Source of the DNA: an uncultured Pseudomonadota bacterium
GTDB lineage: Bacteria; Pseudomonadota; Alphaproteobacteria; Rs-D84
Length of the DNA: 64,000 nucleotides
Direction of reading: 5' to 3'
Assembly: GCA_902793435.1 (NCBI GenBank)
Contig: CADBDF010000005.1
Coordinates: forward strand, 14,383-78,382
Numbering within the stretch: the first letter of the stretch is position 1; each line of letters opens with the position of its first letter. A program made the position numbers and the translations under genes. A model generated the notes under the pieces. The model ran no database searches. It was not told the origin of the DNA and saw only the letters and a program-made list of their open reading frames with translations. Shown here one piece after another: positions 30,850 through 46,745 of the stretch.

Positions 30850-30969
30850 CTGTATGTTTATGGATGTTTTTTGTAAAAATGGCCATTGTTATGCTTTTAT
30901 AAACAATCAATATTTTATCAAATTTTCGCAGAAATCTGCAGTTTTTGCACGTGTAATTTATCTGACAAA

Positions 30970-30989
30970 GTGACATACGGATTAACAGC
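30970..30989 (+). repeat. att core, tRNA-distal copy
   Basis: 20/20 identity with 46695-46714. The 23 nt to its left match the tRNA-Asn 3' end at 11/23 positions, with substitutions mostly toward A/T. Confidence 0.6.
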
Positions 30990-31066
30990 AAGCCCGCAAT
31001 TTGCCCGGATTTTCTTGGGTTGCAGCGTGTAAGGCCCATAAATCAGCCACTTTTTCGCGTATAGCT

Positions 31067-31138
31067 GTGTAGCCACTGTGTAGCTGTTTTTTTATGTGTA
31101 GCTCCTGTGTAGCAAAAAAATTGCACTATCGTGTAGCC
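31067..31138 (+). repeat. five direct (T/C)GTGTAGC repeats (putative integrase arm-type sites)
   Basis: Copies lie at 31067, 31078, 31096, 31107 and 31131, all in the same orientation, 80-170 bp from the att core. Confidence 0.55.
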
Positions 31139-31222
31139 ACATGTACTAAAAAAATACAAAAGAGAGAATGCATCAACCAACTTTTACGGAATATTTTTGG
31201 TGATTTTATCGCGACTAACGGA

Positions 31223-31681
31223 CTAAATTTTGCTTTTTAATTTTTCAAAAAAAATATCAAATCCATTATACTCTATGTGTCGTCTTACTCGTTTGTTTAC
31301 AGCAATAACTCTGCCGGTTGGCATCTGTGTTGATAAGCCAGCGTTGTATTCATGCCAATAAGACGATTTATCTGTTTTGATTCCAAGTTTTTGTAAAGCT
31401 TCTTCTGCCAAATCGCCTATGGGAGCATTTGGCAGTACAACCCCATTATTAAAAGTACGAGTTTTTGCATATATACCGTATCCGATTTTTATCAATGTAC
31501 CATCTTTTACTAACATGCGTAATGCACGCAGCACTTGATCATAGTCATATTCCGCCACAAGATCATCAAAATCCTTTAAGATAAAAACGTTGTCTTTTCG
31601 TCTTTTAATGCGTAATGCGGTTTTGTATAAAAGGGGCTTTTTATTTTTCATGTTGCGATCTCTTGTGTCAAAATACGACAT
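31223..31681 (-). CDS. DUF6088 / AbiEi_4-like wHTH protein
   Basis: The pattern VFILKDFDD...ALRMLVKDGTLIKIGYGIYAK...AGLSTQMP matches the AbiEi-type antitoxin-like family by eye. Confidence 0.55.
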   Translation of the reverse strand: MSYFDTRDRNMKNKKPLLYKTALRIKRRKDNVFILKDFDDLVAEYDYDQVLRALRMLVKDGTLIKIGYGIYAKTRTFNNGVVLPNAPIGDLAEEALQKLGIKTDKSSYWHEYNAGLSTQMPTGRVIAVNKRVRRHIEYNGFDIFFEKLKSKI

Positions 31682-31721
31682 TTTTATATAAAAAGCGAGA
31701 TTTTTTTATAGAAATACTATC

Positions 31722-31960
31722 AAAAACGACAAATTATTGCAAAAACAGCACTAAAAATAACAAATAATTGCAAAAAGACGTTAAAAAGGGATTAAAAACG
31801 ACAAAAAATAGCAATAATCAAAAACAATAGAAATTCTTGCTAAAAATATGCGTATTTTTAGTTAAAAATGACAAATTGTTGCAAAAATAGCATTAAAAAC
31901 GACAAATTATTGCAAAATGCTCTTGAAAATACGTTAAAAATAACATAAAATTACAATAAA
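31722..31960. promoter_or_regulatory. six direct ~24-bp repeats (AAAAACGACAAATTATTGCAAAA) in divergent intergenic region
   Basis: Copies start at 31722, 31753, 31794, 31864, 31895 and 31936. The spacing is 31/41/70/31/41, meaning a 142-bp duplicated triplet. Confidence 0.6.
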
Positions 31961-31971
31961 GAGGTTTAAGT

Positions 31972-33438
31972 ATGGTGATAGATAATTTACCAGAGGTGTT
32001 TTTATCAACGGGCGATGTGGCTTATAAGGTTTCTCGTCTATTGAAGGATGGTCAGGTAAAAAAATTGACCGGTAATTTGTATACTTCTAATGTCACAGAC
32101 GATGTCGACAAGATTGTTTCTACTCGTTTATGGGAAATCGTTGGGTTGTTGTTTCCTGGTGCCATTATCTCAGATCGAACCGCTTTTTATATGGGACCAA
32201 ATAAAGATCATGAAATATTTATCGTTTCAGAAAAATCCAGACGACCGGTAAAAGTTGGCTCTTATACAATTTATCCTCGTCCTGGGGCGGCTGTTCAGCC
32301 ATCTGATACACCTTTTATGGGAAATTTGTTTTTGGCTTCTAATGCTAGAAAATACTTAGAGAATATGAGGGTATCTCGTAACAAAGTTAGTATAGAACCT
32401 CGTTATTTATCTCAACAAGAAATAGAAGAAAAATTGGATCAATATATACGGGTTAATGGGGAGGCCGCATTAAATAAATTGCGTGACGATATGCGCACTT
32501 TATCTGCCACGTTAAAGTTGGAATCAGAGTTCAATAAAATAAATTCGATCATCAGTACGTTGTTAAGAACTCATACCTCAAGATTGAAATCTAATGTTGG
32601 TATTGCTCGCTCTATGGGTGAAGAATTTGATCCTGAACGTGTTGTGTTATTCACGGCGTTATATGAGGCACTTAGTTCAACCGCTCCGGTAATTCGTAAA
32701 ACCGAACAGAACTTTTCTCCAGTTTTATGTTTTTATGAATCATATTTTTCTAATTATATTGAGGGAACTAAATTTGCTGTTTCTGAAGCACAGGATATAG
32801 TTTTTAATAATAAAATACCCGCATCTCGGCCCGATGATGCACATGATATAGCTGGAACGTATGCTGTTATTTCTAGCGAACATGACATGTTGCGTACACC
32901 AAAGAATTTTGATGACTTTATTGACATATTAAAAAAAAGGCATGCACGTATAATGGAAGGGAGACCAGAAAAAGAACCCGGAAAATTTAAAACATTATTA
33001 AACCAGGCCGGATCCACAGTATTTGTTGAACCAAATCTTGTTGTTGGAACTTTAAAACAAGCTTTTGAATTGTATTCAAGGTTGGATACAGCCTTTGCGC
33101 GTGCTGTGTTTATGATGTGTGCAATAGCAGAAGTTCATCCTTTTAATGATGGAAATGGGCGTATATCAAGAATTATGATGAATTCAGAACTTGTTGCAAA
33201 CAACGAATCTCGTATAATAATACCAACAATTTATCGTTCGAATTACTTGATGGCATTGAAGGGTTTCTCTCATAACAAAATTACTGATTCTATAATAAAG
33301 ACGATGGATTTTGCTCAAAAATATACTAGTCAAATAGATTGGACTGATTTGCGCACAGCTACTGATATATTACAATCAACAAATGCGTTTGTTGAGGACG
33401 CTGAAAATATTACGGCATTATTAAGATTGCCGAAATAG
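31972..33438 (+). CDS. AbiEi-like N-terminal domain fused to class II Fic (AMPylase-type) domain
   Basis: Fic motif HPFNDGNGRISR and N-terminal inhibitory-helix motif SNYIEG. The N-terminal ~230 aa have AbiEi features (LLKDGQVKKLTGNLY, AIISDRTAF). Confidence 0.85.
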   Translation: MVIDNLPEVFLSTGDVAYKVSRLLKDGQVKKLTGNLYTSNVTDDVDKIVSTRLWEIVGLLFPGAIISDRTAFYMGPNKDHEIFIVSEKSRRPVKVGSYTIYPRPGAAVQPSDTPFMGNLFLASNARKYLENMRVSRNKVSIEPRYLSQQEIEEKLDQYIRVNGEAALNKLRDDMRTLSATLKLESEFNKINSIISTLLRTHTSRLKSNVGIARSMGEEFDPERVVLFTALYEALSSTAPVIRKTEQNFSPVLCFYESYFSNYIEGTKFAVSEAQDIVFNNKIPASRPDDAHDIAGTYAVISSEHDMLRTPKNFDDFIDILKKRHARIMEGRPEKEPGKFKTLLNQAGSTVFVEPNLVVGTLKQAFELYSRLDTAFARAVFMMCAIAEVHPFNDGNGRISRIMMNSELVANNESRIIIPTIYRSNYLMALKGFSHNKITDSIIKTMDFAQKYTSQIDWTDLRTATDILQSTNAFVEDAENITALLRLPK

Positions 33439-33794
33439 TTTTTTAATAATTTATTGATGTCCAATAATGAATATTTAGATAGAAAAATATATGCATTTTT
33501 CTATAAAAATCGATTCGTTTGAAAATGGTGATTTTTGGGTCGGGTGCCGTCGATGAGGGGGAGCAAAAAAATTTAACAAAAGTATATTTAGATGCGTTCT
33601 CATACATTTTTGATATATTATGATACATTTCATTTGTTCAAAAAAGTGTATTTTTCTGCGGCTTTTACAAGACTTTTATTTTTTAGCATGCTATAATTTG
33701 CATGTAAGGATATCAAAAATTGCTGTGATTTTAGATGATACTTTACGGCGTTTTTTGAACCGGACAAAACCATCAAAACCCAAAGGAGAAAAAC

Positions 33795-34055
33795 ATGGAA
33801 CATGAGTTCTTGAATTATGGGGGGATGGAGAGAGAACCAAACTATAAACTTATAAACATAAAGGAAGATGTTTTGAAAGACAGGCTGCTTACACCAAGAG
33901 AGACAGCAGCTTATCTTGGATCGTCTGTTTCGGCATTAAGCCAATATCGTGCGCTGGGGATCGGGCCTTTGTACTTCAAAATCGGCAAAATGGTGCGGTA
34001 TCGCATATCAGATATAGATAAATGGCTGGAAGATAAGAAAAACGGTGGGAAATAA
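33795..34055 (+). CDS. AlpA/excisionase-type HTH protein
   Basis: LLTPRETAAYLGSSVSALSQYRALGIGPLYFKIGKMVRYRISDIDKWL fits the HTH_17/AlpA pattern. It lies directly upstream of int. Confidence 0.7.
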   Translation: MEHEFLNYGGMEREPNYKLINIKEDVLKDRLLTPRETAAYLGSSVSALSQYRALGIGPLYFKIGKMVRYRISDIDKWLEDKKNGGK

Positions 34056-34093
34056 TTGTTTCTACTGGATATTCCGTAGTTATCGTGCATTGT

Positions 34094-34101
34094 TGTGTAG
34101 C
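34094..34101 (+). repeat. single TGTGTAGC copy just upstream of the int RBS
   Basis: Same octamer as the island-end clusters, about 7 nt before the aaaggag RBS of int. Confidence 0.35.
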
Positions 34102-34121
34102 TGTAACAAAGGAGTACACAT

Positions 34122-35330
34122 ATGGCAGAACAATGGAAATGTTATACTAAACCGTTTCGGGATACATGGATACATCTGTTGCATTCGGATGTGAATTTAC
34201 AGGTAAGTGACGGGACAATCCCCGGGCTATTCCTGCGATATTCGGCGGCAACGCGTACTATCAGGTTTTTCCTGGGGTGTAAAATCGATAAAAAGAAATG
34301 TAACCTTTATATCGGGCGGTATAACGATTATTCAATCAAAGACATTCGTGAAATGGCATGGAATATGCGGCATCAAATTGCCCAGGGGCAAGACCCACGT
34401 CGCGAAAAGATAGAACAACAAATGAAAGAAAAAGAGGCGCTTGGGGAAAAGTTCCAAGATTTATTCCCACAATACATGGATAAATATGCCAAGGTTTACA
34501 AGAAACCACGAACACAAGATTCTAATTGGGGTGAATACCGATTATATCTGGGGCCAATGTTTGATAAATTATACATGCGTCAGATAGAAGAAAAGCATGT
34601 AATGGATGCCTATGCCAAATGGGTTAAAAAGACATCGTTTTCAACCGCAAATAAAGCACTATCGTTATTCTCAAATTTCTGGGACTGGTGCGAAATGTAC
34701 AAATACGTGGATCGCAACACCAACCCATGTAAATATGTTCGCAAAGGGGCGAATAAAACTTACAAGCCACAAATACTTGATCAAAATGGCTATCGTGCGT
34801 TATCGCATGCGCTGGAGGTTGGACCAAAGGTGTCCAGAATGCATCCACGCTTATTCAATGCTTTGCGGGTTTTAATGCTAACCGGATGTCGTGCATCAGA
34901 AATAACAGGTCTGGAAGTAGACGAATTGGCACTGATGCACAAAGTAATACATTTGAAAGACAGTAAGACCGGGGCCAGGGATGTTAAGTTATGTGATGCG
35001 GTTATACCATATTTACAGGCTGCGCTGGATGAAGCAACTGCGCTGGGCAGTAAATACGTATTTCCAGGCGTAGGCAATATCCGGCGCCCAATAAATAACA
35101 TCCGTAAACCGTTTGAATGGGCGCTGGAATACGCAAAGCTGCCCCACATGCGAATACACGACCTGCGGCACTCATTCATCAGTATGGGGGCGAATATAGG
35201 CGAAAACATGGCCGCCATGAAAGAAGCGGCAGGCCACAGTCGCATAACCACCACCGAAGGCTACACTCATATCATGGACAGCAGCACCTATCGTGCGATA
35301 AATAACGTTGCAAACGCAATATGTGGCTAG
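34122..35330 (+). CDS. int: tyrosine-type site-specific integrase (P4-like, DUF4102 N-domain)
   Basis: Catalytic boxes TGCRASEI, HDLRHSF and GHSRITTTEGYTH, with a P4-type N-terminal arm-binding region. Confidence 0.95.
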   Translation: MAEQWKCYTKPFRDTWIHLLHSDVNLQVSDGTIPGLFLRYSAATRTIRFFLGCKIDKKKCNLYIGRYNDYSIKDIREMAWNMRHQIAQGQDPRREKIEQQMKEKEALGEKFQDLFPQYMDKYAKVYKKPRTQDSNWGEYRLYLGPMFDKLYMRQIEEKHVMDAYAKWVKKTSFSTANKALSLFSNFWDWCEMYKYVDRNTNPCKYVRKGANKTYKPQILDQNGYRALSHALEVGPKVSRMHPRLFNALRVLMLTGCRASEITGLEVDELALMHKVIHLKDSKTGARDVKLCDAVIPYLQAALDEATALGSKYVFPGVGNIRRPINNIRKPFEWALEYAKLPHMRIHDLRHSFISMGANIGENMAAMKEAAGHSRITTTEGYTHIMDSSTYRAINNVANAICG

Positions 35331-35361
35331 TTGTGCGCTGGTGTATCGTGATGAATCAAAT

Positions 35362-35385
35362 TCGCCCCGTTACAGGGGCGTTTTT
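35362..35385 (+). terminator. terminator after int
   Basis: Stem cgcccc / ggggcg with loop gttaca, followed by ttttt. Confidence 0.55.
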
Positions 35386-35390
35386 ATGGG

Positions 35391-37109
35391 GGTAACGGCG
35401 AGCGCAATGCCTCTTTACACACACAACGTCAAAATGTGTTCGCAGTTCGCACTTTGGGGGTGTAAACCGCAGAAATCTGGTAAAACATGGGTGCGAACAC
35501 ATGCGAACACCTAGTGCGAACACCTAATGTGATTTGAAGGTATACTTGCGACCTTTGTTCCGGCCGGTGGCAACCAAAAAACCTTTATTTACTAAAACAG
35601 AAAACAATTGTCGGACACGTTGTGGTGATTTGCCGGTGGCTTTTATTGCATCTGCGGCGGTGACTTCGCCCTTGGTAATAATGATCACTGCGATGGTTTT
35701 TAAGAACTTATGTTCGGTATCGCTCAGCATATCGATAGTTATATCGCTAGCTATATCGCTAACTTTTTTATCGCTACTAGCGATATATTGACGTTGATTT
35801 ATAAAATCGTCATACATAAAAATTCACCTTTTATCGGGTTCATTTTTGATTCTAACCCATTTTTCCGAAAAATCTAGTCTTTTAAGAAAGCCGTCTAACT
35901 GTCCTGTATTGTGGCGTATCATAAAAAATCAAAAAGGTACTGTCTGGACATTTTTCTATTGAGGGTAACGGCGAGCGAGGCACTTCGCTAGCGTCAGAAC
36001 AAAAAATAGGTGCGCAGGTGCGCACTTTGGGTATTTATTGCGTAAAAACAAAGCGTTAAGTGCGCACCTGGGGTGCGCACCAGGTTCGCACCCATGATTT
36101 CAGTTCTGAAATCACATACGATATCGTGTACGATTTCATATACGATATCGTGGGTAAAGAAAAAGAAAGAAGTAAGTAGTAAAGGAAAAGATAAATATAA
36201 AGAAAAAGATAATTGTAAAGAAAGAGAAAGAAGTAATGCACGTTCAAATTGTTGAAAACCTGTTGAAAACTTACGTGCATCTGTTGGTATAGTTTGTAAT
36301 GCTTTGCAATGTGTTGATAACTATTTTGTGCACACCAGATGTATCACAAAGTATCAATGTGTTTTGTCATGCAAGGATGATAGTTAGCAATATGGCTTGT
36401 TACATACAGAGCAAAAAAGGTGTCCGCAGTCCGCACTTTGGGTCTTTGTTTCGTAAAAACAATAAGTGCGTGTCATTGGTGCGTGCCTAGTACGCATCAA
36501 AACAAAAAAGGTACTGTGACGGGAGTTTCAATCAAGGGTAACGGCGAGCGCAGCGCCTCGCTACACACAAGATAAAATTTTAAGCCGCATGCCGCACCGC
36601 AGGGGTCAAGTGTGCAGAAATCTGGTTTTTTAGTGCGGCTTTGTGCCGCGGCAGTGCCGCACTTATGCCGCACAGAGACAGAACAAATTGCCTATGAACC
36701 CCAATCAAGAACCATAAAAAATATCGTGATGTGTTAATTTGATTCAAAAAGAATCGTAATGTTTTTTCATGAATTTACATATAAAAATATCATGATTTTT
36801 TGGGTCAAATGTATCGTGGTGTATCATAATGTGTCAACGAAAAAATCCGCAGAAAATAAGGGCTTTACAAATGAAAATTTTTCATGCATGGTGGGGATGA
36901 AGCAAAGGATTTTTTATGAACGATTTTGAGTTTGTTGTTGATTTGTTAAGTAAAACAGGGGCTGTTGGCAACTGCATTATAGACCTGGAAATAACGAAAC
37001 GGAATTTCAGTGCGTTAAAAGGCAACAATGATGTGCGGATACAAAAACAGCTCAACATCAGTTTGCAAAGATATCACAACGAAATTGATGAACTGCATAG
37101 AATAGTTGG
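35391..37109. repeat. three tandem diverged modules with exact 573-bp period and module-specific iterons
   Basis: The GGTAACGGCGAGCG box occurs at 35391, 35964 and 36537. cgcactttggg lies at offset +57 in modules 1 and 2. gcagaaatctgg lies at offset +80 in modules 1 and 3. Each module has its own NNCGCAC word family in direct and inverted copies. Confidence 0.6.
35524..35817 (-). CDS. small winged-helix DNA-binding protein
   Basis: 97 aa. The C-terminus AADAIKATGKSPQRVRQLFSVLVNKGFLVATGRNKGRKYTF is wHTH-like. The stop codon overlaps the GTGCGAACAC iterons. Confidence 0.5.
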   Translation of the reverse strand: MYDDFINQRQYIASSDKKVSDIASDITIDMLSDTEHKFLKTIAVIIITKGEVTAADAIKATGKSPQRVRQLFSVLVNKGFLVATGRNKGRKYTFKSH

Positions 37110-37290
37110 CATCAATCCGTCATCGCCAAACGAACCAATACCACATAACCCCAGAAACGAATTGCAATATATCACCGACAGAATCCCCGCATATGTAGCC
37201 TTACGAGAACTAAAAGGCGACCTCAGAGCATATGCAATAGATTGTCTGTTGCCCAGATTGTATCCAAAACGAAAAATCGGGGGGATATAG
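36916..37290 (+). CDS. small conserved protein, paralogue A (R-M-associated)
   Basis: 124 aa. It aligns without gaps, at about 30% identity, to the 47240..47593 product (MNDFEFV/MNNFDFV; YITDRIPAYVALREL/YITRMIPTYVICREL). The upstream ctttacaaa...atgcat region is also shared. Confidence 0.6.
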   Translation: MNDFEFVVDLLSKTGAVGNCIIDLEITKRNFSALKGNNDVRIQKQLNISLQRYHNEIDELHRIVGINPSSPNEPIPHNPRNELQYITDRIPAYVALRELKGDLRAYAIDCLLPRLYPKRKIGGI

Positions 37291-37356
37291 GATGTTCTAC
37301 TTGACTTTATCCCTTGTTTTGGGCTACATTTTTCACAAAGGAAAGGTTGAAATCTC

Positions 37357-38346
37357 GTGGAATACGAAGTTGATGTAAAAGAAAGTATGATAAAGAAAAA
37401 GTGGCCAGGGGTTCTGGAGCTGCTTCTTTTAGATCACACAACGAATAAAAACATATTTTGGGCTACAGATCTTTATGAAAAACGGTACAAATCACGCTTC
37501 TATGCCTTTAGATCGCCAATTACAATAGATTTGATCACTGAGGGAGAAGATCGTGTTATTAAACCTCGTGTCACCAAAGAAAAACAAGATCGACAATATC
37601 GTATCAAGGATAAAGCAGAAGTTTTTACACCAGCATGGATTTGCAATAAACAAAACAACCTGATTGACAATGATTGGTTCGGTTATGAGGGTGTTTTCAA
37701 CAAAGAAAAAGATGATAATACCTGGACCGCCACCAAGAAACCGGTTATGTTTCCAGAAGGAAAAAATTGGGTTGATTATGTTCGTGAATTGCGGTTAGAG
37801 GTTGCGTGTGGTGAGGCGCCGTATTTGGTCAGTCGATATGACATCACAACCGGTAAAAAAATCAAGTTACAGAATAGAATTGGTTTGTTGGATCGCAAGA
37901 TGCGTATAGTAAACGAAAACGCCGCCAGTGATAGCGAATGGATTGCGATGACAAAATGGGCGTTCAAAAGCACATACGGTTACGAATGGCAGGGGGATAA
38001 TTTGTTATTGGCCCGTGAAAACCTGTTGTTCACATTTATCGATTATTTTGAAGATAGATTTGGTAAAGAACCAGATATGGAAATGTTGAAAGAAATAGCG
38101 GAAATCATTTCTTGGAATATTTGGCAGATGGACGGCATTCGTGGTGTGTTGCCATGCACGTGTTGTAATTCAAAATACACAGATTTATTTGGCGAAAAAA
38201 CGATGGACTGTTGTCTTGGGTGTAAAACGGGCGATATCCACAGTCATAATGGAAAATACTGCTATATCGGTGATTGGAACAGAATGACATCAAAAGGACA
38301 ACCAACAAAAATTAAATATATTTCATTACTAAAGGGTAAAAAATGA
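37357..38346 (+). CDS. degenerate gamma-MTase-like N-lobe protein with C-terminal Cys/His zinc-finger-like cluster
   Basis: Motif X-like AEVFTPAWICN and motif I-like LEVACGEAPYLVSRYD, but no NPPY. The C-terminus is CTCCNS...CCLGCKTGDIHSH. GTG start after an aaggaaagg RBS. The stop overlaps the next start (ATGA). Confidence 0.65.
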   Translation: MEYEVDVKESMIKKKWPGVLELLLLDHTTNKNIFWATDLYEKRYKSRFYAFRSPITIDLITEGEDRVIKPRVTKEKQDRQYRIKDKAEVFTPAWICNKQNNLIDNDWFGYEGVFNKEKDDNTWTATKKPVMFPEGKNWVDYVRELRLEVACGEAPYLVSRYDITTGKKIKLQNRIGLLDRKMRIVNENAASDSEWIAMTKWAFKSTYGYEWQGDNLLLARENLLFTFIDYFEDRFGKEPDMEMLKEIAEIISWNIWQMDGIRGVLPCTCCNSKYTDLFGEKTMDCCLGCKTGDIHSHNGKYCYIGDWNRMTSKGQPTKIKYISLLKGKK

Positions 38347-41300
38347 GCAACTTTGAATCAGCTTTCAGTGGTTATAAACTTATTTACGTTTTTAGCATGC
38401 CTTACGCAGATCACGATGGTGCGTTAAAGATAGGTGAAGCAACAATAAACACCGATGAGTTGCCGGATACTTTGACCCCAAATTGTCAGGAATTAAATGC
38501 TGCTGCTAACAAACGTATTAAGCAATATACTCAGACAGCAGGCCTGAGGTACGATTTGTTATACACAGAACTTGCTAAGACAAACGCCGGTAAGGCTTTT
38601 TCTGATCATGATGTTCATAAAGTTTTAAATCGTTCAAACATAAAGAAAAAACAATTTGAAGAAGTCGATGGATCCAAAGAATGGTATATGGTTGGTTTAG
38701 ATGTTGTAAAAAATGCGATAAGGGCCGTTAAAGAAGATAGAAAATCATTGGATCCAAACGAAGCCATTTCATCTTGTGCACCGATCCTTTTACGTGATGA
38801 ACAGAAAGATGCAGTAAAGAAAACAATCAAGCGTTTCAAGTCTGGGCATAATCGTATGTTGTGGTATGCAAAGATGCGGTTTGGGAAAACATTAACAGCA
38901 ATGTCTTTGGTGGGCGAATTAGGTTTAAAACGTACAATAATCATCACGCATAGACCGGTGGTAAAAGATGGTTGGTATGATGATTTCAAAAAACTATTTT
39001 GTGATAAACCAGATTATAAATTCGCTTCACGTACAGTCGGTGAAAATTTTGAAGACGTAGAGCGCGATGCAAAACACGATAGATGTAAATATTTATACTT
39101 CGCATCCATTCAGGATTTGCGTGGCGCAGAAGCCGCTGGTGGAAAGTTTGATAAAAACAATGCGATATTTAACACCGATTGGGATATGGTCATAATTGAT
39201 GAGGCTCACGAGGGTACCCAAACAGAACTTGGTAAGAATATTGCAGAATTGTTGGTTAAAGACAAAACATACTTGTTGCAATTGTCCGGTACACCGTTCA
39301 ACTTGTTGGATAATATAGACGAAGACGAGGTCTATACTTGGGACTATATTATGGAACAGCGTGCCAAGGCAGATTGGCATAAAAAACACCTCGGTGAACC
39401 GAACCCTTATGCATCTTTGCCAAAGATGAATATATTTACTTATGACATGAGTAAAATAGAAGGTGGCAAATATGGGTCTTATACCGAAGATAAATATTTC
39501 AACTTTTCTGAGTTTTTCAAGACTAAACCAAATGGTGATTTTGTTCATGAAGACGACATTCGTGAGTTCTTAAATTTGTTAGTAGACGATAAAGCAGACA
39601 GTAATTATCCTTTCTCTAAACAAGAGTATCGTGATAACTTCAGACATTCGTTGTGGATGGTTCCTGGTGTAAAGGAAGCAAAGGCACTTAGCAAATTGTT
39701 AAAAGATCACCCTGTGTTCGGAAAGTTTAATATAGCAAACGTAGCTGGTGATGGTGACGAAGAAACAAACTTTAAAGATGCGCTGGACTTAGTACGTAAA
39801 GCGATTACGGATCATCCGCAGGACACATATTCTATAACGATTTCCTGTGGTCGTTTAACAACAGGTGTAACTGTACCAGAATGGACGGCTGTATTTATGT
39901 TGGCTGGTGCATACTCAACGGCCGCATCAACATACATGCAAACAATATTCCGTGTTCAATCGGCGGCAAACATCAATGGTCGTATCAAAGAAAACTGTTT
40001 TGTTTTTGATTTTGCACCTGATCGTACCCTGAAATGTGTTGCTGAATCTGTTAAGGTTTCAACACGTGCCGGTAAAACACGTGCAACCGATCGTGCGATA
40101 ATGGAAGATTTGTTGCAATTCTGCCCGATTATTTCGGTAACTGGTTCACATATGAACCCGTATAATGTCAATGGTATGCTTGAACAATTAAAACGTGCGT
40201 ACATTGATCGTATCGTTACTCATGGATTTGAGGATCCAAATCTGTTCAATCGTGATATGTTGTTACAGTTGGATAAATCGGCGGTTGAAAAGTTTGATGC
40301 TTTACAAAAATTGGTTGGCAGTTCAACGTCCAAAAACTCTGATACGAATAAAGAAAAACAAATTATCATGGCTGATAATGGCATGAATCCAGATGGTGCA
40401 AAACAATCTGATCAACAGCCACCACAAACGCCACTAACAGATGATGAACGTGCTGCGTTGGAAGAACGTAAAGAGGCTAAATCAAAACGCGAAAAAGCTT
40501 TAAAGGCATTGAAGGGTGTTGCTATTCGTATTCCAATGTTGATTTACGGCGCAGATATCGATGTAAACCAAGATATTGACTTGGAGCAGTTCGTTGATAT
40601 GGTTGATCCAATATCGTGGGAAGAATTTATGCCGCGTGGCATAGATAAAGAAGTGTTTAAACAATTTATCCCATATTTTGATCGTGATGCGTTTATTGGG
40701 GCTGGTAAAGAGATTCGCCAACGTATTAAACGTGCTGACCGTATGGAACCAACAACCAGAACACGTTTCATGACTGCGCTGTTCTCTACCTTTAAAAACC
40801 CTGACAAGGAAACGGTTTTAACGCCGTGGCGTGTCGTGAATATGCATATGGGTGATTGTTTGGGGGGATATAATTTTTATGATCCAGAATACAAGAATCC
40901 AATTCCAGATACCGAAGATGTTAGGTATATGGATATCCCAAATGTTACGGATGAAGTTTTTGGACCAAAAGATACCAAAATTTTGGAAATAAATTCAAAG
41001 TCTGGTTTGTATCCATTATATGTGACATACACAATTTGGCGTAAAAGATGTATGGAAAATAACATTGATATAACAAAATTAACCGAAGATGACACATTAT
41101 TTGCCAAAGCACTTGAGATATGGGACAGCGTCGTTCAAAATAATGTCTATATTATCTGCAAAACCCAAATGGCTAAAAGCATTACGCAAAGGACTTTGTG
41201 CGGCTATCGTGATGCTAAAATAAATGCACACGCTTTTGACAATTTGGTTACAATGATAAAAGATGGTAAAAGCAATAAATTTATAGAAAAAGCGAAAACT

Positions 41301-42359
41301 GGTTCAACATATAATTCAAAATCAAAGGAGGCAAATATGAAATTTAATGCGGTAGTGGGCAATCCTCCTTACCAGGAGAATATAGATAATCGTGGTGAAC
41401 AACCTCCTTTGTATCATTTTTTCTATGATTGTGCACAACAGTTATCCGCAATTGTGACCCTTATAACACCGGCTAGATTTTTGTTTAATGCTGGTAAAAC
41501 ACCGGCGGCATGGAATAAAAAGATGTTGAATGATCCTCATTTTAAGGTTGTGGATTATTTCCAAAATTCTAAAAATGTTTTTGATAGTGTAGACATTAAA
41601 GGCGGTGTTGCTATTTCTATTATAGATCAGCATCGTAATTTCGGTAAGATAGGGGACTTTGTGAAAAACAATGAGATACGAGATATTTTAGTGAAAGTCT
41701 CAAATCAAAATAATTTGTCAGAAATTGTATTTTCAAATACTAGCTATAAGTATAGCAAGCTGTTTTTTGAAGAGCACAAAGAATTAAGAGATAGAGTTTC
41801 CGGTGGATCATCAAGATATTTATCTTCATCTGTATTTGATAAATTTCCAGAAGTTTTCTATGAAGAGCTGCCAAAAGACAACAAGAAATATATCTGTATT
41901 TTAGGAAGACAGAATTCTCATCGGCGTTTTATGTGGATGAGGGCGGATTATTTATGTCCTCCAAATAATTGTAATAAATATAAAGTTTTTATAGCCAGTT
42001 CTAATGGCACGGGAGCTCTGGGTGAAGTTTTGAGTGAACCTATTGTAGGAAAGCCTTTTACAGGGGCTACAGAAACTTTTTTAAGTATTGGTAATTTTGC
42101 AAATGAAGAGCAGGCTGTGAATTTATGTAAATATATAAAAACTAAATTTGCTAGAGTAATGCTGGGGACTAAAAAAGTAACACAGGGCAATAAAAAACCA
42201 GAAATTTGGTCTAATATCCCTTTGCAGGATTTTACGAATAAATCTGATATTGACTGGTCTAAATCTATTGCCGAAATAGATAAGCAATTATACAAGAAGT
42301 ACGGCCTGGATAAAAAAGAAATCGATTTCATCGAATCCATGATCAAACCAATGGAGTAA
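38343..42359 (+). CDS. GIY-YIG/T5orf172-like domain - SF2 (ResIII/SNF2-like) helicase - Eco57I-type N6-adenine MTase fusion protein
   Basis: 1338 aa. The N-terminus has YKLIYVF..LKIGEA..KEWYMV. Helicase motifs are Walker A MRFGKT (~38875-38892), DEAH (39198-39209), LSGTP and QTIFRVQS. MTase motifs are motif X ETVLTPWRVV, atypical motif I ILEINSKSGLYPLYV and NPPY at 41361-41372. Confidence 0.85.
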   Translation: MSNFESAFSGYKLIYVFSMPYADHDGALKIGEATINTDELPDTLTPNCQELNAAANKRIKQYTQTAGLRYDLLYTELAKTNAGKAFSDHDVHKVLNRSNIKKKQFEEVDGSKEWYMVGLDVVKNAIRAVKEDRKSLDPNEAISSCAPILLRDEQKDAVKKTIKRFKSGHNRMLWYAKMRFGKTLTAMSLVGELGLKRTIIITHRPVVKDGWYDDFKKLFCDKPDYKFASRTVGENFEDVERDAKHDRCKYLYFASIQDLRGAEAAGGKFDKNNAIFNTDWDMVIIDEAHEGTQTELGKNIAELLVKDKTYLLQLSGTPFNLLDNIDEDEVYTWDYIMEQRAKADWHKKHLGEPNPYASLPKMNIFTYDMSKIEGGKYGSYTEDKYFNFSEFFKTKPNGDFVHEDDIREFLNLLVDDKADSNYPFSKQEYRDNFRHSLWMVPGVKEAKALSKLLKDHPVFGKFNIANVAGDGDEETNFKDALDLVRKAITDHPQDTYSITISCGRLTTGVTVPEWTAVFMLAGAYSTAASTYMQTIFRVQSAANINGRIKENCFVFDFAPDRTLKCVAESVKVSTRAGKTRATDRAIMEDLLQFCPIISVTGSHMNPYNVNGMLEQLKRAYIDRIVTHGFEDPNLFNRDMLLQLDKSAVEKFDALQKLVGSSTSKNSDTNKEKQIIMADNGMNPDGAKQSDQQPPQTPLTDDERAALEERKEAKSKREKALKALKGVAIRIPMLIYGADIDVNQDIDLEQFVDMVDPISWEEFMPRGIDKEVFKQFIPYFDRDAFIGAGKEIRQRIKRADRMEPTTRTRFMTALFSTFKNPDKETVLTPWRVVNMHMGDCLGGYNFYDPEYKNPIPDTEDVRYMDIPNVTDEVFGPKDTKILEINSKSGLYPLYVTYTIWRKRCMENNIDITKLTEDDTLFAKALEIWDSVVQNNVYIICKTQMAKSITQRTLCGYRDAKINAHAFDNLVTMIKDGKSNKFIEKAKTGSTYNSKSKEANMKFNAVVGNPPYQENIDNRGEQPPLYHFFYDCAQQLSAIVTLITPARFLFNAGKTPAAWNKKMLNDPHFKVVDYFQNSKNVFDSVDIKGGVAISIIDQHRNFGKIGDFVKNNEIRDILVKVSNQNNLSEIVFSNTSYKYSKLFFEEHKELRDRVSGGSSRYLSSSVFDKFPEVFYEELPKDNKKYICILGRQNSHRRFMWMRADYLCPPNNCNKYKVFIASSNGTGALGEVLSEPIVGKPFTGATETFLSIGNFANEEQAVNLCKYIKTKFARVMLGTKKVTQGNKKPEIWSNIPLQDFTNKSDIDWSKSIAEIDKQLYKKYGLDKKEIDFIESMIKPME

Positions 42360-42364
42360 AGTGT

Positions 42365-42703
42365 ATGCGAGTAGATGTGAACTTTAAAATATCCAACGAT
42401 AATGATAATCAATACCATGATGAAATTGTTGCTGGCTTGATGGATAGATATAATTGGTATGAAGAGTATGGTTTAATTGGTGGCGACATTCCTAATATGG
42501 TAAATAATGATGTCTGCATGTCAGAGTGCTATAAAATGGTTTTGGCGGTTGTTCAGGATGTAGCAACAAAGTATAATCAAATATTACAACTTGATGCTTT
42601 ATATATTTCGGTGAATCTTGTTGCTAGAAATTACGTACCTGGGCAGCAAATACAACCTGGAACAATGAAAGAATATAAGAACATAACAGTTAAACCAATA
42701 TAG
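42365..42703 (+). CDS. hypothetical protein, last gene of operon
   Basis: 112-aa ORF starting 5 nt after the previous stop. A GGAG RBS sits within the upstream gene's end. Confidence 0.5.
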   Translation: MRVDVNFKISNDNDNQYHDEIVAGLMDRYNWYEEYGLIGGDIPNMVNNDVCMSECYKMVLAVVQDVATKYNQILQLDALYISVNLVARNYVPGQQIQPGTMKEYKNITVKPI

Positions 42704-42733
42704 ATACAAAGTTCGTAAAAATAAATTTATAAC

Positions 42734-43219
42734 TTATTGCGCTGTTTGACTCTTTGCCGCTAACAGATTGGCGCGTTCGTTCTTTTTCTCTTGTAAATCT
42801 ATGTAAGTATATCTGCGTGAAGTTTTTATCGGGTACGTAGAGTACACAAAATCAATGAACTTATTAAACGAAAAATCTTTCGTAAGCTCAATAACTTTAC
42901 AAATAACGTTTTTTTCAGATTCTGTTAAATGTTTATAATCATAATTTGTGTTCTTTATGCTTATATACAAAGCTGTCCCATGCGGAGTTTTTGTAAAGAA
43001 CTCTTCTGATGCAGCGTCGCACACTTCTTGAACATAAGGTCCATAATTGTGAAAAAACCATTTGATGCCAGATATGCTTTTTGCATCTGGCGTTAGCAAT
43101 ACGTTTCGCCAGTCAGACAAAAACACCAACTTTGTAAGTCGTGCGTTGGATAGATCTTGTCTTTTGTTTTCGGGGTATGCCGATATGATAAAATGTATGA
43201 TTTCTTGCAGTTTATTCAT
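42734..43219 (-). CDS. Panacea (DUF4065, SocA/PanA-like) domain protein
   Basis: ARLTKLVFLSDWRNVLL...FFHNYGPYVQEV matches the DUF4065 pattern. The start overlaps the upstream gene's stop by 8 nt. Confidence 0.7.
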   Translation of the reverse strand: MNKLQEIIHFIISAYPENKRQDLSNARLTKLVFLSDWRNVLLTPDAKSISGIKWFFHNYGPYVQEVCDAASEEFFTKTPHGTALYISIKNTNYDYKHLTESEKNVICKVIELTKDFSFNKFIDFVYSTYPIKTSRRYTYIDLQEKKNERANLLAAKSQTAQ

Positions 43220-44057
43220 TTTCTAACCCCTCGACTTCTTTCATTATTTTAACATATTTGTAATAAGATTTGAATAATTTTGTTATCTTTTTAAACACCG
43301 CTTTACACAAGTATTTTATAATTAGCTTTTGAAAAAATTTTCCAAAATGACCGTAAAGCGACTCATTTGTTGTTTCAAACACGATAACACCAAGTTTTTC
43401 ATCATTGCATTTGAATTGTTGTGCATAATAAATTGCGGATTTCATTTTTATTCCATGTAATACTTTTTGATCCATATTTGGGTATGTGTTTTTGTTCTTT
43501 TTTACCCACTGACTGGCAGATTCTACTTTGCCAAAATTATGGTATATGTTACGCGTGTTATTAAAACATGTTCCGACAATATCGTCTTGTAAAATTAGAC
43601 TTTTAGGATCTTTATTCTTTTGGTTTTCATTTGCTGAATACCTATAAAATCGCAAGAAAGATTGTGTCGTATCCTGGATGTATATTGTGACGCGTTCATT
43701 TGCTTCAAAATTTGCCAACAATGAAGAAAGGGCCATGACTTTATCACAAGATTTAAATAAGTGCTTTTTTACCAGGCTTTTTAAATCTTCAGGATCATAG
43801 GTGTTGCTTAAGTGTTCAAACCAACCTAACATCGGATCTATTATTATTGCACGCAAGCACCACAATATAACGACAACAAGCGCAAACACCCGTAAGGCTG
43901 GTGCAATATTGTAACCAAATATAACATGCCCATCAGGGAAAAGAGAAAAATAGGCCAATATTATAGCAACTATGAACGGGCCGCCAAACATCAAACGACC
44001 GTTTATATTCCAATTCAGTTTTATGTTATGAAAAATATTATAGAACCAAAATCTCAT
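43212..44057 (-). CDS. membrane protein (2-3 TM) with cytoplasmic GAF-like domain
   Basis: N-terminal hydrophobic helices (FGGPFIVAIILAYFSLF, ALRVFALVVVILWCL). The C-terminal region ends in a KLGVIVFETTNESLYGHF GAF-like pattern; this domain call is weak. Confidence 0.55.
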   Translation of the reverse strand: MRFWFYNIFHNIKLNWNINGRLMFGGPFIVAIILAYFSLFPDGHVIFGYNIAPALRVFALVVVILWCLRAIIIDPMLGWFEHLSNTYDPEDLKSLVKKHLFKSCDKVMALSSLLANFEANERVTIYIQDTTQSFLRFYRYSANENQKNKDPKSLILQDDIVGTCFNNTRNIYHNFGKVESASQWVKKNKNTYPNMDQKVLHGIKMKSAIYYAQQFKCNDEKLGVIVFETTNESLYGHFGKFFQKLIIKYLCKAVFKKITKLFKSYYKYVKIMKEVEGLENE

Positions 44058-44157
44058 GGAAAAACCAGTACCACACTTCCTTGAAAAAAACTTACTTGAA
44101 TATAATCAAATTGTTTGCCTTATAGTTGTATAAAATACTTCTTGTTAACGATTACGC

Positions 44158-44186
44158 ATTGTATCATAAAATGCCATAAAAGTCAA
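44158..44186 (-). promoter_or_regulatory. sigma70-like promoter for the TM/Panacea operon
   Basis: The minus strand reads TTGACT-N17-TACAAT, about 95 nt upstream of the start at 44057. Confidence 0.4.
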
Positions 44187-44241
44187 TAAAAAAGCCAAAA
44201 ATAGCGAAGTGGTTCAATATGGTATAAAATATCGTTTTGCT

Positions 44242-44688
44242 TCAGGTTGTAATAAACACAAACCCGAACCATTTGCGTAAAAGGTTAAGATGTGCTTGGT
44301 ATGTTGTTGCGCTGGCTTGTTCTCGCTTGAATTCGGCAATTTCTTCGGCCGACAGGCCAAGTTCCCGAGCAAATCGATTAGCTAGCCCTATAAGGTAGAA
44401 AACGTTTCCTTGCGGGCTTTTCAGGTCAATAACGATGCCAGTCGGATACTTTGCGTTGGGTATAGTGGGTATATCGTTGCGCTGGTAGGCTTTATGATGG
44501 GCCACAACCTGCACAAACTTGTTTTGTATACGGCGGAGCAGCCATGCCTGGCGGCAGGTCAATTTACCGCCGTTTGTGCGACGAATTGCGGCCTGTAGTT
44601 CGCGTAAAGACCGACAAGCGGCAAAATATAACATCACAAAATCTGTGCGATGGTTGGGCAAAATATCGTCAAAATGCGTATATTTCAT
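44242..44688 (-). CDS. hypothetical protein (has a relic paralogue at 51005-51211)
   Basis: The ATG at 44688 follows an aaagga RBS. The segment TNGGKLTCRQAWLLRRIQNKF recurs outside the island. Confidence 0.5.
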   Translation of the reverse strand: MKYTHFDDILPNHRTDFVMLYFAACRSLRELQAAIRRTNGGKLTCRQAWLLRRIQNKFVQVVAHHKAYQRNDIPTIPNAKYPTGIVIDLKSPQGNVFYLIGLANRFARELGLSAEEIAEFKREQASATTYQAHLNLLRKWFGFVFITT

Positions 44689-44812
44689 AGACAATCCTTT
44701 TAAGGTTGTCGTATTTGTCCGCATTTATTGCCAAAAGTCCAGTTGTTTGTTGTAAATAAAGGATATTGCTTGTTTTTCAAATTTTTGGTAATTTGGAACC
44801 AAAGGGGACAAA

Positions 44813-45574
44813 ATGGCAGATTATAAGGAATATCTGGATAAAATAAGAAATTCGCAGTTGTTATATTTTGATTCATTTCCATTGGATATGACGTCTTGTG
44901 AATATAATGTGCATTTGTTGTTGAATAAAATGGCAGAGTCAAGAAAATCGTATTTATTACTAATGGACAATGAAAGGTTTTCAGATGCCGTATTGATAGC
45001 AGGACATTTGTTAGAGAATGCTGCGGTGATCAATTATATTTCTGCCAGTTTGCAAGAAGCTAATACAAAACAAATAAGCAAATTACAAACTCTATGTGAT
45101 TTATTCAAATTTGTAGGCGATGATAATGTGGATGCGGAAACTCAAGAAACTATAGATTTTATAATGGATGATTTTAAGAATAGATGCGACATAGTTGTAT
45201 CGAAAAAAGCGGAACAAAGTCACGAAGAATTGGTCCAGACTATATTGATGGCTATGACAAATTCGGAAAAATTAAGAATTATAAAAAATAATTACGAATT
45301 TCCGGTGGTTGAAGATTATTTGAGGCCGTTTAGGAAAGATTTATCAAATTTTTATGGTTTTTCCGGTATTGATAAAAAGCTTGTGTTGTTTTATTCGTCA
45401 TATTGCAAAATAAAACACTGCGGGGCGGCTATGTATGCGCCAGTTCTATGCAAAGATAGGGTTGTTATGAATAAAAATCAGTACAGAGACCTTAGCCCTA
45501 TAGTTGTCTGGATGTGTTTGGAATACACAGAAAAGAATATAAAAAATATATTGTCAATAAACGAACTAAAATAA
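44813..45574 (+). CDS. hypothetical protein
   Basis: 253-aa ORF with a ggggacaaa RBS-like stretch. No confident domain. Confidence 0.5.
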   Translation: MADYKEYLDKIRNSQLLYFDSFPLDMTSCEYNVHLLLNKMAESRKSYLLLMDNERFSDAVLIAGHLLENAAVINYISASLQEANTKQISKLQTLCDLFKFVGDDNVDAETQETIDFIMDDFKNRCDIVVSKKAEQSHEELVQTILMAMTNSEKLRIIKNNYEFPVVEDYLRPFRKDLSNFYGFSGIDKKLVLFYSSYCKIKHCGAAMYAPVLCKDRVVMNKNQYRDLSPIVVWMCLEYTEKNIKNILSINELK

Positions 45575-46402
45575 GTCGTGTTTTAGATTTTTTCTACGTC
45601 TCTTTCGATTCCTTTTGTTCTGTTTTTCTTCTTCAAGATCTTTTTTGCACTTTTCCTTATAGTCAGCAAAACGTTTGTTATATAGCATCTTCATTTCAGA
45701 TATAAATTTTTTGACATTTGTAGAAATGTCTTCCGCTGATTTGATTTTGGTGTATTTATTTACGATTTTTGTGTGTTCTTTATCTTGCGACAATATAAAT
45801 AAACCAACTTGATCAAACAATTCCAGATAGGACCATTTTGGTAATTTTTCACGATGTGGTCCTAAATTGGTGTGAATTATTACAGAAACTTCTTTCAGCT
45901 TTTCAAAACCAGTAATGTTTTTAAAATATTGTGAGAACACCTGTTTATTTGTTTGTAACGTTTGTTGTGCATAGGCACATTGATTGTAGGCTTCATGTGG
46001 TGGTATAAATAAAAAAGTAATATCTTCTTTTGATAGCGGTTGTATTATTATTTCAGATTTTGGTTTTAAATGAATAAACACGTCAAATTCATGATAACTA
46101 TATAACTTCAACATTATGGTTAGTTCTTTGACTTTAATAGCTTCTCTTGAGCGGTTTTTTATAGATAGTTCTACATGTGGATTTTGTTCCTGGTCTTGCT
46201 TCCCTTCTCTAAATTCTGGAATGCCGGATTTTATTGCAAATTTAGCGAAAGTTGTTAAAAACTCTCTCAGGGGGAAAAATAATGCGACCGCAACAGCTAG
46301 AAAAGTTGCAACTACTCCAGCCTTTTCCCAAGCAGAATCACGACCAAGTTGTTCGATGGTTTTTAATAATTGTTGAAAGTCTGAATTTGATATTATCACC
46401 AT
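45566..46402 (-). CDS. hypothetical membrane-anchored protein with highly basic C-terminus
   Basis: 278 aa with one TM (GVVATFLAVAVALFFPL) and the tail KRNRKRRRKNLK. It overlaps the convergent neighbour by 9 nt. Confidence 0.45.
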   Translation of the reverse strand: MVIISNSDFQQLLKTIEQLGRDSAWEKAGVVATFLAVAVALFFPLREFLTTFAKFAIKSGIPEFREGKQDQEQNPHVELSIKNRSREAIKVKELTIMLKLYSYHEFDVFIHLKPKSEIIIQPLSKEDITFLFIPPHEAYNQCAYAQQTLQTNKQVFSQYFKNITGFEKLKEVSVIIHTNLGPHREKLPKWSYLELFDQVGLFILSQDKEHTKIVNKYTKIKSAEDISTNVKKFISEMKMLYNKRFADYKEKCKKDLEEEKQNKRNRKRRRKNLKHDLF

Positions 46403-46543
46403 ATTATAACCTTACTACTGCGGATATAGGTATAAAATCAGATTTTTCAATAATAGTATCGCATTATGTTCAAAATATGTAGACAATTTTACGGGTTGAA
46501 AAAGCATAAGTTATTCATAAGACGACGGATAGGTTACGGATCC

Positions 46544-46562
46544 TGTGTAGCTATTGTGTAGC
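46544..46562 (+). repeat. two direct TGTGTAGC repeats (putative arm-type sites, tRNA-proximal end)
   Basis: Copies at 46544 and 46555, in the same orientation as the left-end cluster, about 135-150 bp from the att core. Confidence 0.5.
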
Positions 46563-46629
46563 CAGAGGGGTGTTTTATGGCGTATTTTGGTGTATCGTAG
46601 TATGCGTAAATACAGAAGTGTTAAGTAAA

Positions 46630-46660
46630 GAAAATGCCGTAAACCTGCGGGGTTTACGGC
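46630..46660 (-). terminator. terminator after tRNA-Asn (island-encoded)
   Basis: Stem gccgtaaacc / ggtttacggc. Confidence 0.5.
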
Positions 46661-46669
46661 GGAATTCCT

Positions 46670-46745
46670 TGGCTCGGGCAACTGGACTCGAACCAGTGAC
46701 ATACGGATTAACAGTCCGTTGTTCTACCGACTGAACTATGCCCGA
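46670..46745 (-). tRNA. tRNA-Asn (anticodon GTT)
   Basis: Hand-folded 76-nt cloverleaf with anticodon loop CTGTTAA and an encoded CCA. It is close to E. coli tRNA-Asn. Confidence 0.92.
46695..46714 (+). repeat. att core inside tRNA-Asn (anticodon loop to start of T-stem)
   Basis: Identical to 30970-30989. Confidence 0.6.

Follow-up and report, generated by a model that had tools for sequence, protein, structure and literature searches.

Organization of the locus

The locus described here lies in a 64,000-nucleotide (nt) stretch of an uncultured alphaproteobacterium (assembly GCA_902793435.1, contig CADBDF010000005.1; hereafter the window, to which all coordinates refer), whose source genome measures 898 kb and is 97.8% complete. 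Its central gene encodes a protein of 488 amino acids (aa) with an AbiEi-like N-terminal domain, a linker and a C-terminal Fic domain; six direct repeats precede it, and a short gene of the AbiEi family is transcribed divergently. The spacer between the two open reading frames (ORFs) is 290 bp, or 320 bp if the small gene starts at 31651. The features on which the analysis turns are as follows, with the evidence for each in brackets.

31972-33438, plus strand: gene of the 488-aa AbiEi-like(N)-linker-Fic(C) protein (ORF call, Pfam, PADLOC, homologs, AlphaFold2 (AF2) model)
31972-32391, plus strand: N-terminal AbiEi-like domain, aa 1 to ~140 (AF2, Foldseek, PADLOC, Pfam)
32749-32766, plus strand: inhibitory motif S260-N-Y-I-E264-G265 (alignment to FICD homologs; invariant in the family)
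33136-33171, plus strand: Fic active-site motif HPFNDGNGRISR, aa 389-400 (ORF translation, Pfam, homologs)
31715-33461, plus strand: single-gene cassette, putative operator array plus AbiEi-like-Fic ORF (blastn and alignments against congeners)
31223-31681, minus strand: short AbiEi-family gene, an orphan, with an ORF of 152 aa (PADLOC AbiEi match)

The repeats and the Fic gene form an inserted cassette

Three congeners (G016, G017 and G019) lack the repeats and the Fic gene but retain the small gene along with the HTH_17/integrase flank. In blastn searches and alignments the window segments 31229-31714 and 33462-35329 lie only ~50-80 bp apart in these genomes, from which it follows that the interval 31715-33461, with the six repeats and the Fic ORF, was inserted as a cassette of 1.75 kb, its boundaries good to ~20 bp. 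The repeats and the Fic ORF are a discrete, separately acquired insertion, and its distribution is patchy: of 40 related genomes, three (the congeners) have the small gene and none has the Fic N-domain, and the Fic gene occurs in 1 of 41 related genomes. In the relative L082 the same slot holds a DUF6088-AbiEii operon together with three unknown genes, and near-identical copies of the filled locus occur in two other metagenomes. The cassette carries no recombinase of its own.

The protein belongs to a large family that comprises over 2977 clusters at 90% identity; its members are all ~490 aa long and conserved at the N-terminus. With a profile of the N-domain, 812 clusters (50% identity, E≤1e-10) were retrieved, and the top matches are all Fic fusions, their fragments or frameshifted copies. 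Members occur in the chromosomes of many phyla and in phages; the 64% relatives (L081 5001-6470; L091) lie between phage tail-tube and tape-measure genes, and a 63% relative adjoins integrase and RloB/AAA_21 genes. The homologs in L081 and L091 are moron-like single genes, each with its own 5-6 repeats. No small-AbiEi neighbour was present at 11 genome, 3 viral and 80 metagenome loci, at L081 or at L085-L090, and no conserved neighbour gene of any kind was found among 72 non-redundant family loci; the sole conserved candidate for binding the repeats is therefore the Fic protein itself. The Fic homolog P0006 is followed by a gene of 152 aa, which was considered as a counterpart of the small gene and rejected, being unrelated to the 152-aa protein of the window.

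A class II Fic domain fused to an AbiEi-like domain

By sequence, the C-terminal half of the 488-aa protein is a class II Fic domain with an intact active-site motif, for which AMPylation is predicted. Pfam Fic covers residues 318-405 (E 2.6e-12), and the core HPFNDGNGRISR fits the Fic pattern HxFx(D/E)GNGRxxR. SNYIEG (residues 260-265) conforms to the class II motif (S/T)xxxE(G/N) and aligns with the inhibitory-helix TVAIEGN of FICD homologs; in the AF2 model it falls within a predicted helix (250-263) on the same chain, N-terminal to the Fic core. Both the core and the inhibitory motif are invariant in 25 homologs, and the class II assignment of the original prediction, which had been read from the letters, is upheld by these matches. 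The PADLOC models SoFic and PDC-S04 match the Fic half; the NCBIfam SoFic model gives the 488-aa protein 20 bits against a cut-off of 550, and the winged helix-turn-helix (wHTH) that follows Fic at the C-terminus in proteins of the SoFic/CccR type is not present, the AF2 model having ~60 helical residues beyond the Fic core.

The whole-protein AF2 model, built with 25 homologs (predicted local distance difference test (pLDDT) 92.6; predicted template modelling (pTM) score 0.86), has an N-domain (1 to ~135-140), a helical linker (~148-235) and then the Fic domain. Foldseek with this full-length model returned Fic structures alone, and a separate model of residues 1-145 was therefore made (pLDDT 87), which shows a strand, a helix (14-25), a beta-hairpin (30-38) and then an alpha/beta sub-domain. 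No Pfam or NCBIfam family was matched by the N-terminal 250 residues of the window protein. When residues 1-145 were compared with 350,542 PDB chains by Foldseek, the first match was the AbiEi of Streptococcus agalactiae (6Y8Q, 6y8q_A; 135 columns, probability 0.92); a comparison with viral structures (BFVD) gave nothing useful. Sixteen N-terminal fragments from the family were run against PADLOC, and all 22 families matched are AbiEi models (best E 2.2e-5), one of which, PDLC02225, was matched by nine of the fragments; the top Pfam family for the same fragments is AbiEi_4 (2/16, E 6.9e-5). Because of the 6Y8Q match, the exclusively AbiEi matches in PADLOC and the rank of AbiEi_4 in Pfam, we regard the N-domain (~140 aa) as a remote AbiEi relative, an assignment that is supported but not proven.

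Phased direct repeats upstream of the Fic gene

The six repeats precede the Fic ORF in two triplets; distances to the ATG are given for the proximal triplet, and plus signs in brackets give the step from the preceding copy.

31722-31745, plus strand: repeat 1, AAAAACGACAAATTATTGCAAAAA, distal triplet
31753-31776, plus strand: repeat 2, distal triplet (+31)
31794-31817, plus strand: repeat 3, distal triplet (+41)
31864-31887, plus strand: repeat 4, proximal triplet (-108 from the ATG)
31895-31918, plus strand: repeat 5, proximal triplet (+31; -77)
31936-31959, plus strand: repeat 6, proximal triplet (+41; -36)

These are same-strand direct copies of ~24 bp with a spacing of 31/41/70/31/41, exactly as had been read before. 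The array is a triplet duplicated over 142 bp, the two 96-nt copies being 78% identical; the proximal triplet occupies the usual position of the family sites described below, and the distal triplet is its local duplicate. One hundred dinucleotide shuffles gave a mean of 2.4 copies and a maximum of 4, and at up to 3 mismatches the repeat motif is unique to the array in the whole 898-kb genome, where a reversed control pattern has 0 matches. Repeat 6 overlaps a -10-like TAAAAT and abuts the ribosome-binding site (RBS) AAGAGG. A sigma-70 promoter scan stayed at the level of shuffles (12 versus 12.3 sites), and the -35/-10 pair at 31923-31951 is for that reason only a suggestion of a candidate promoter.

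Iterated direct repeats also stand upstream of unrelated members of the family, which were sampled as 73 non-redundant upstream regions, extended by a metagenome scan with a family-specific segment. A self-match at offset 31 (10-of-12) occurs in 39 of the 73 regions (controls: 0.7 in shuffles, 1 in coding and 0 in downstream sequence), and offsets of 30-32 are seen in 47. In 124 other Fic genes without the N-domain, offset 31 is at background (10/124, versus 5-9 for other offsets). A family motif seeded from loci other than the window, with the consensus CTTAAATCCCAAAAACTTGCAT, has 133 upstream sites, 123 of them on the gene strand, versus 2 sites in the coding controls (72 regions) and 2 in the downstream controls (60 regions); a train/test split gave 40 sites in 35 held-out loci, versus 2 and 0 in the controls. 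The sites cluster between -110 and the start codon, which some of them overlap. From one site to the next the distance is 31 bp in 40 cases and 41-42 bp in 18, and the spacings of 31, 41-42, 62 and 72-73 bp are multiples of ~10.4 bp, which places the sites on one face of B-DNA. Operator variants follow protein sub-clades among 36 loci, a correspondence that carries shared ancestry and is no test of direct read-out.

Between the window and the rest of the family the sequence resemblance is graded and runs via the 63-65% relatives, with GCAAAAGTTTGCA in L081 and L091; what the window and the family share is mainly the array architecture, not the exact operator sequence. Far from being absent at orthologous loci, repeats occur at the homologous loci in lineage-specific form, and they belong to the Fic gene, not to the gene pair. 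In the GC-rich members L191, L187, L260, L248 and L203 the start codon is overlapped by an extra operator copy placed 31 bp further downstream (…TTAATGCCC…), so that a site includes the first codons (Met-Pro-…).

The adjacent small AbiEi gene

The 152-aa protein is a true short member of the AbiEi family. It matches PADLOC AbiEi models from end to end (E 5.6e-37), Pfam DUF6088 falls below the gathering score (E 0.0021), many of its homologs carry PF19570 or PF13338, and AbiEii directly follows homologs in a phage (66% identity) and in a chromosome; its earlier description as a divergent AbiEi/DUF6088-like gene was accurate. Sequence searches of the PDB with the protein and with its family profile found nothing significant. 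Since most homologs begin at Met11, translation probably starts from the ATG at 31651, for a product of 142 aa.

No AbiEii (DUF1814/PF08843) match exists anywhere in the 898-kb genome, in a search whose positive controls matched, and the small gene is therefore an orphan antitoxin homolog of the island backbone (the island is described below). It is monocistronic and lies at the island end; its counterpart in L082 is 93% identical. The locus has no bicistronic abiEi-abiEii operon with inverted repeats at its promoter; the repeats are direct and part of the Fic cassette. Loss of an AbiEii gene downstream of the small gene, within the island, was considered and dropped: only 234 bp separate the gene from the attachment (att) site, and the same holds in L082.

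Upstream of the small gene, GTCAATATACGACATTT occurs twice in tandem in the congeners (L179 8862-8940) and once in the window (31652-31714), where the perfect palindrome TTTTTATATAAAAA stands beside the single copy. The small protein may have its operator in this region, with which the Fic repeats have the core ACGACA in common. Elsewhere (L267 and L268 3501-3917) another member of the small AbiEi family is a stand-alone gene; SLFN/AlbA_2-HATPase genes flank it on both sides, and a DUF6088-AbiEii pair lies 2 kb away. Short AbiEi orphans seem to turn up repeatedly in the vicinity of complete AbiE pairs.

A proposed self-repressing AbiEi-like-Fic module

AbiEi, binding as a monomer, represses its own operon at repeated 23-bp sites (PMC3985639, PMC7319586). 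In CccR, a Fic protein, repression of its own promoter is combined with a toxicity that is due to the Fic domain (PMC9755527). We propose that the cassette is a solitary, mobile, self-repressing AbiEi-like-Fic module, a one-polypeptide analogue of AbiE, and we consider this reading fairly probable. The N-domain would bind the direct repeats of ~22-24 bp that precede its gene, the bound sites sharing one face of the DNA (31 bp being ~3 turns and 41-42 bp ~4) and extending into the promoter/RBS region, and would thereby repress its own transcription, as AbiEi does at abiE and CccR at its own promoter. Autorepression is the most economical reading because only the Fic gene is conserved at the array and because the N-domain resembles a repressor of 23-bp sites. 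The Fic domain would be a latent effector, held off by its own inhibitory helix (E264); once auto-inhibition or repression is relieved, for instance by phage infection or loss of the element, the released Fic domain may AMPylate a cellular target and bring about growth arrest. Fic would then stand where the nucleotidyltransferase AbiEii stands in AbiE, a type IV toxin-antitoxin (TA) and abortive-infection (Abi) system. Binding, repression, toxicity and the trigger are steps that we infer, as is the role in defence or addiction, to which carriage by phages and islands, the patchy distribution and the AbiE operon in the same slot of a relative appear to point. In a bolder form, the AbiEi-like-Fic proteins would make up a very large one-polypeptide TA/Abi class of operator-plus-ORF cassettes, with cooperative same-face binding of monomers at 31/41 bp; this extension is possible, and we put it forward tentatively.

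Several observations weigh against the proposal. The match to 6Y8Q has a TM-score of 0.41 and an E value of 0.014, the N-terminus of the window protein itself reaches the PADLOC AbiEi models weakly (E 0.007-0.044), and HHalign of the Fic family against the small-AbiEi family profile gave no signal (probability 2.8%). The predicted N-terminal unit is one long helix with a hairpin and not a canonical three-helix wHTH, the helical part of which appears reduced in the model. Of the AbiEi-type N-terminal half that the original prediction had assigned, what stands is the remote likeness of ~140 aa found by Foldseek and PADLOC; an HHalign signal and a Pfam match in the window protein are missing. On the DNA side, the motif derived without the window scores the window repeats weakly (8.9 and 7.5 bits, the remainder below 6) and has 16 background matches in the AT-rich 64-kb window, and 23 of the 73 family loci have no site at the chosen threshold. 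Class II Fic proteins, moreover, are often regulatory AMPylases or deAMPylases rather than toxins, and an element acting at the level of RNA would be consistent with the strand bias of the sites as well.

The small AbiEi and the fusion might instead constitute one two-gene TA/Abi module, the repeats being a divergent operator shared by both wHTH proteins, which is in essence the hybrid module that had first been suggested. The two genes are indeed divergent and adjacent, both proteins have an AbiEi-type domain, and the conserved upstream box of the small gene, AAATACGACATTT, has the ACGACA core of the Fic repeats, which makes cross-talk in this strain conceivable. However, the cassette is separate from the small gene, with a homology break between the upstream block of that gene and repeat 1; a search for the gene pair elsewhere found it only in near-identical copies of this element, the small gene occurs without Fic in the three congeners and in L082 and is missing at 72 of 72 other Fic family loci, and the repeats accompany Fic homologs that have no small-gene neighbour. 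These findings do not bear out the shared-operator module, which we judge highly unlikely. A little more room is left for a protein that serves mainly as a transcription factor or as a housekeeping-type regulatory AMPylase/deAMPylase like FICD, EfFic or SoFic, its Fic domain sensing or modifying a partner or itself, with no toxin or defence function. Class II proteins are auto-inhibited by an intramolecular Glu and several act reversibly (FICD structures; SoFic preprint 10.64898/2026.07.09.737422), and members of the family reside in the chromosomes of many phyla. Mobility of the gene as a cassette with patchy occurrence (1/41 related genomes), its carriage in phages and islands, the want of a conserved partner gene and the putative tight autorepression with 3-6 operator sites, a trait typical of toxic genes, all argue the other way, and we regard this explanation as unlikely.

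A different role for the repeats themselves, as RNA-level elements of the 5'-leader that control translation or as mobility or replication sites (iterons, recombinase arm sites) and not as a DNA operator, would account for the 123 of 133 sites on the coding strand and for their position from -110 to the start codon, with some overlapping it; the cassette's lack of a recombinase of its own could be accommodated as well. The spacings in multiples of ~10.4 bp, on the other hand, indicate phasing on B-DNA, the nearest relatives of the fused domain are DNA-binding repressors (PMC7319586), the repeats are present whatever the surrounding element or integrase, and the att sites of the island and its other repeat clusters are located elsewhere, for which reasons we give this account very little credence. 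The self-repressing single-gene module remains the reading that we favour.

The host island

The cassette and the small gene lie in a 15.7-kb integrative island in tRNA-Asn (window 30969-46714), bounded by 20-bp att repeats; homology to L082 begins at 30969. The landmarks of the island around the cassette are the following.

30969-30988, plus strand: left att 20-mer of the tRNA-Asn island, with its twin at 46695-46714, inside tRNA-Asn
33479-33504, no strand: palindrome ATAGAAAAA-N8-TTTTTCTAT, right edge of the cargo slot, kept in the congeners
33795-34055, plus strand: island backbone HTH_17 gene (AlpA/Xis-like)
34122-35330, plus strand: island backbone tyrosine integrase

Other cargo comprises a type II methyltransferase, a 1338-aa type IIG restriction endonuclease-methyltransferase/helicase and an antitoxin gene of the SocA/Panacea-domain type that is preceded by an uncharacterized partner, and the tRNA-Asn island amounts to a defence island. 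The palindrome marks the cargo slot in the window and in L179, L180, L181 and L082; the slot is empty in the three congeners, carries the Fic cassette in the window and, in L082, carries DUF6088-AbiEii with the three unknown genes. This site may act as a hot spot for recombination or as an operator. A 38-nt block (core GGGTAACGGCGAGCG) occurs in three copies at a spacing of exactly 573 bp in the stretch that separates the integrase from the next ORF (35380-36563), and relatives show scattered similarity over this region.

Relation to known systems

Fic toxins and AbiE are both established, as separate two-gene modules. Literature searches for an AbiEi-Fic fusion found no description of one. 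With AbiE (AbiEi plus AbiEii, as in S. agalactiae, Lactococcus lactis and, as Rv2827c-Rv2826c, Mycobacterium tuberculosis) the cassette has in common a predicted N-terminal fold of remote AbiEi likeness, several ~22-23-bp sites at its own promoter with monomer-type binding expected, an effector that would transfer a nucleoside monophosphate, carriage by phages and islands, and an island slot that in a relative holds a true DUF6088-AbiEii operon. It differs in having no AbiEii, the Fic effector being fused in the same polypeptide, and in an AbiEi-like part that is shorter and is followed by a helical linker. The sites in the window are direct and phased at 31/41 bp, whereas those of AbiEi are inverted 23-N3-23 or 23-N13-23 pairs (PMC3985639, PMC7319586); the geometry of binding to 31/41-bp phased direct repeats, putative here, is not described for AbiEi proteins. 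An alternation of AbiE-like and fic cargo similar to that in the slot is seen in ICEHptfs3 of Helicobacter pylori (PMC12443045).

The best sequence and fold matches are class II proteins with an intramolecular inhibitory helix, FICD/HYPE, Caenorhabditis elegans Fic-1, Clostridioides difficile Fic and BT_2513, which have the Fic core and (S/T)xxxE(G/N) but neither an AbiEi-like N-domain nor phased promoter repeats; FICD, unlike the window protein, has a tetratricopeptide-repeat/membrane anchor. CccR and SoFic likewise combine a Fic AMPylase and a DNA-binding domain in one polypeptide, and SoFic is a single-gene defence system in PADLOC, but their order is reversed, with Fic N-terminal and the wHTH C-terminal, and their HTH is of a different type; CccR, in addition, acts as a dimer on a 10-N26-10 inverted repeat and is secreted by a type VI secretion system. 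The class I Fic modules VbhT/VbhA and FicT/FicA, and Doc/Phd, resemble the proposed module as Fic/Doc-fold toxins of mobile elements held by an inhibitory Glu or an antitoxin, yet their inhibitor is a separate small antitoxin encoded in an operon, whereas the window protein has its inhibitory helix and its antitoxin-like domain in cis, without a partner gene.

At the locus itself the annotation is corrected, in that the AbiEi-like neighbour belongs to the island as an orphan antitoxin homolog and is no partner of Fic. For the family, which has a conserved cis-element, the fusion is widespread and may unite the antitoxin/repressor of AbiE with a Fic effector in one self-contained gene. If the proposal holds, thousands of proteins labelled merely "Fic family protein" would gain a function, AbiEi-type domains would gain a new operator geometry, and the cassette would offer a compact model for how a toxic enzyme moves between genomes as a single gene.

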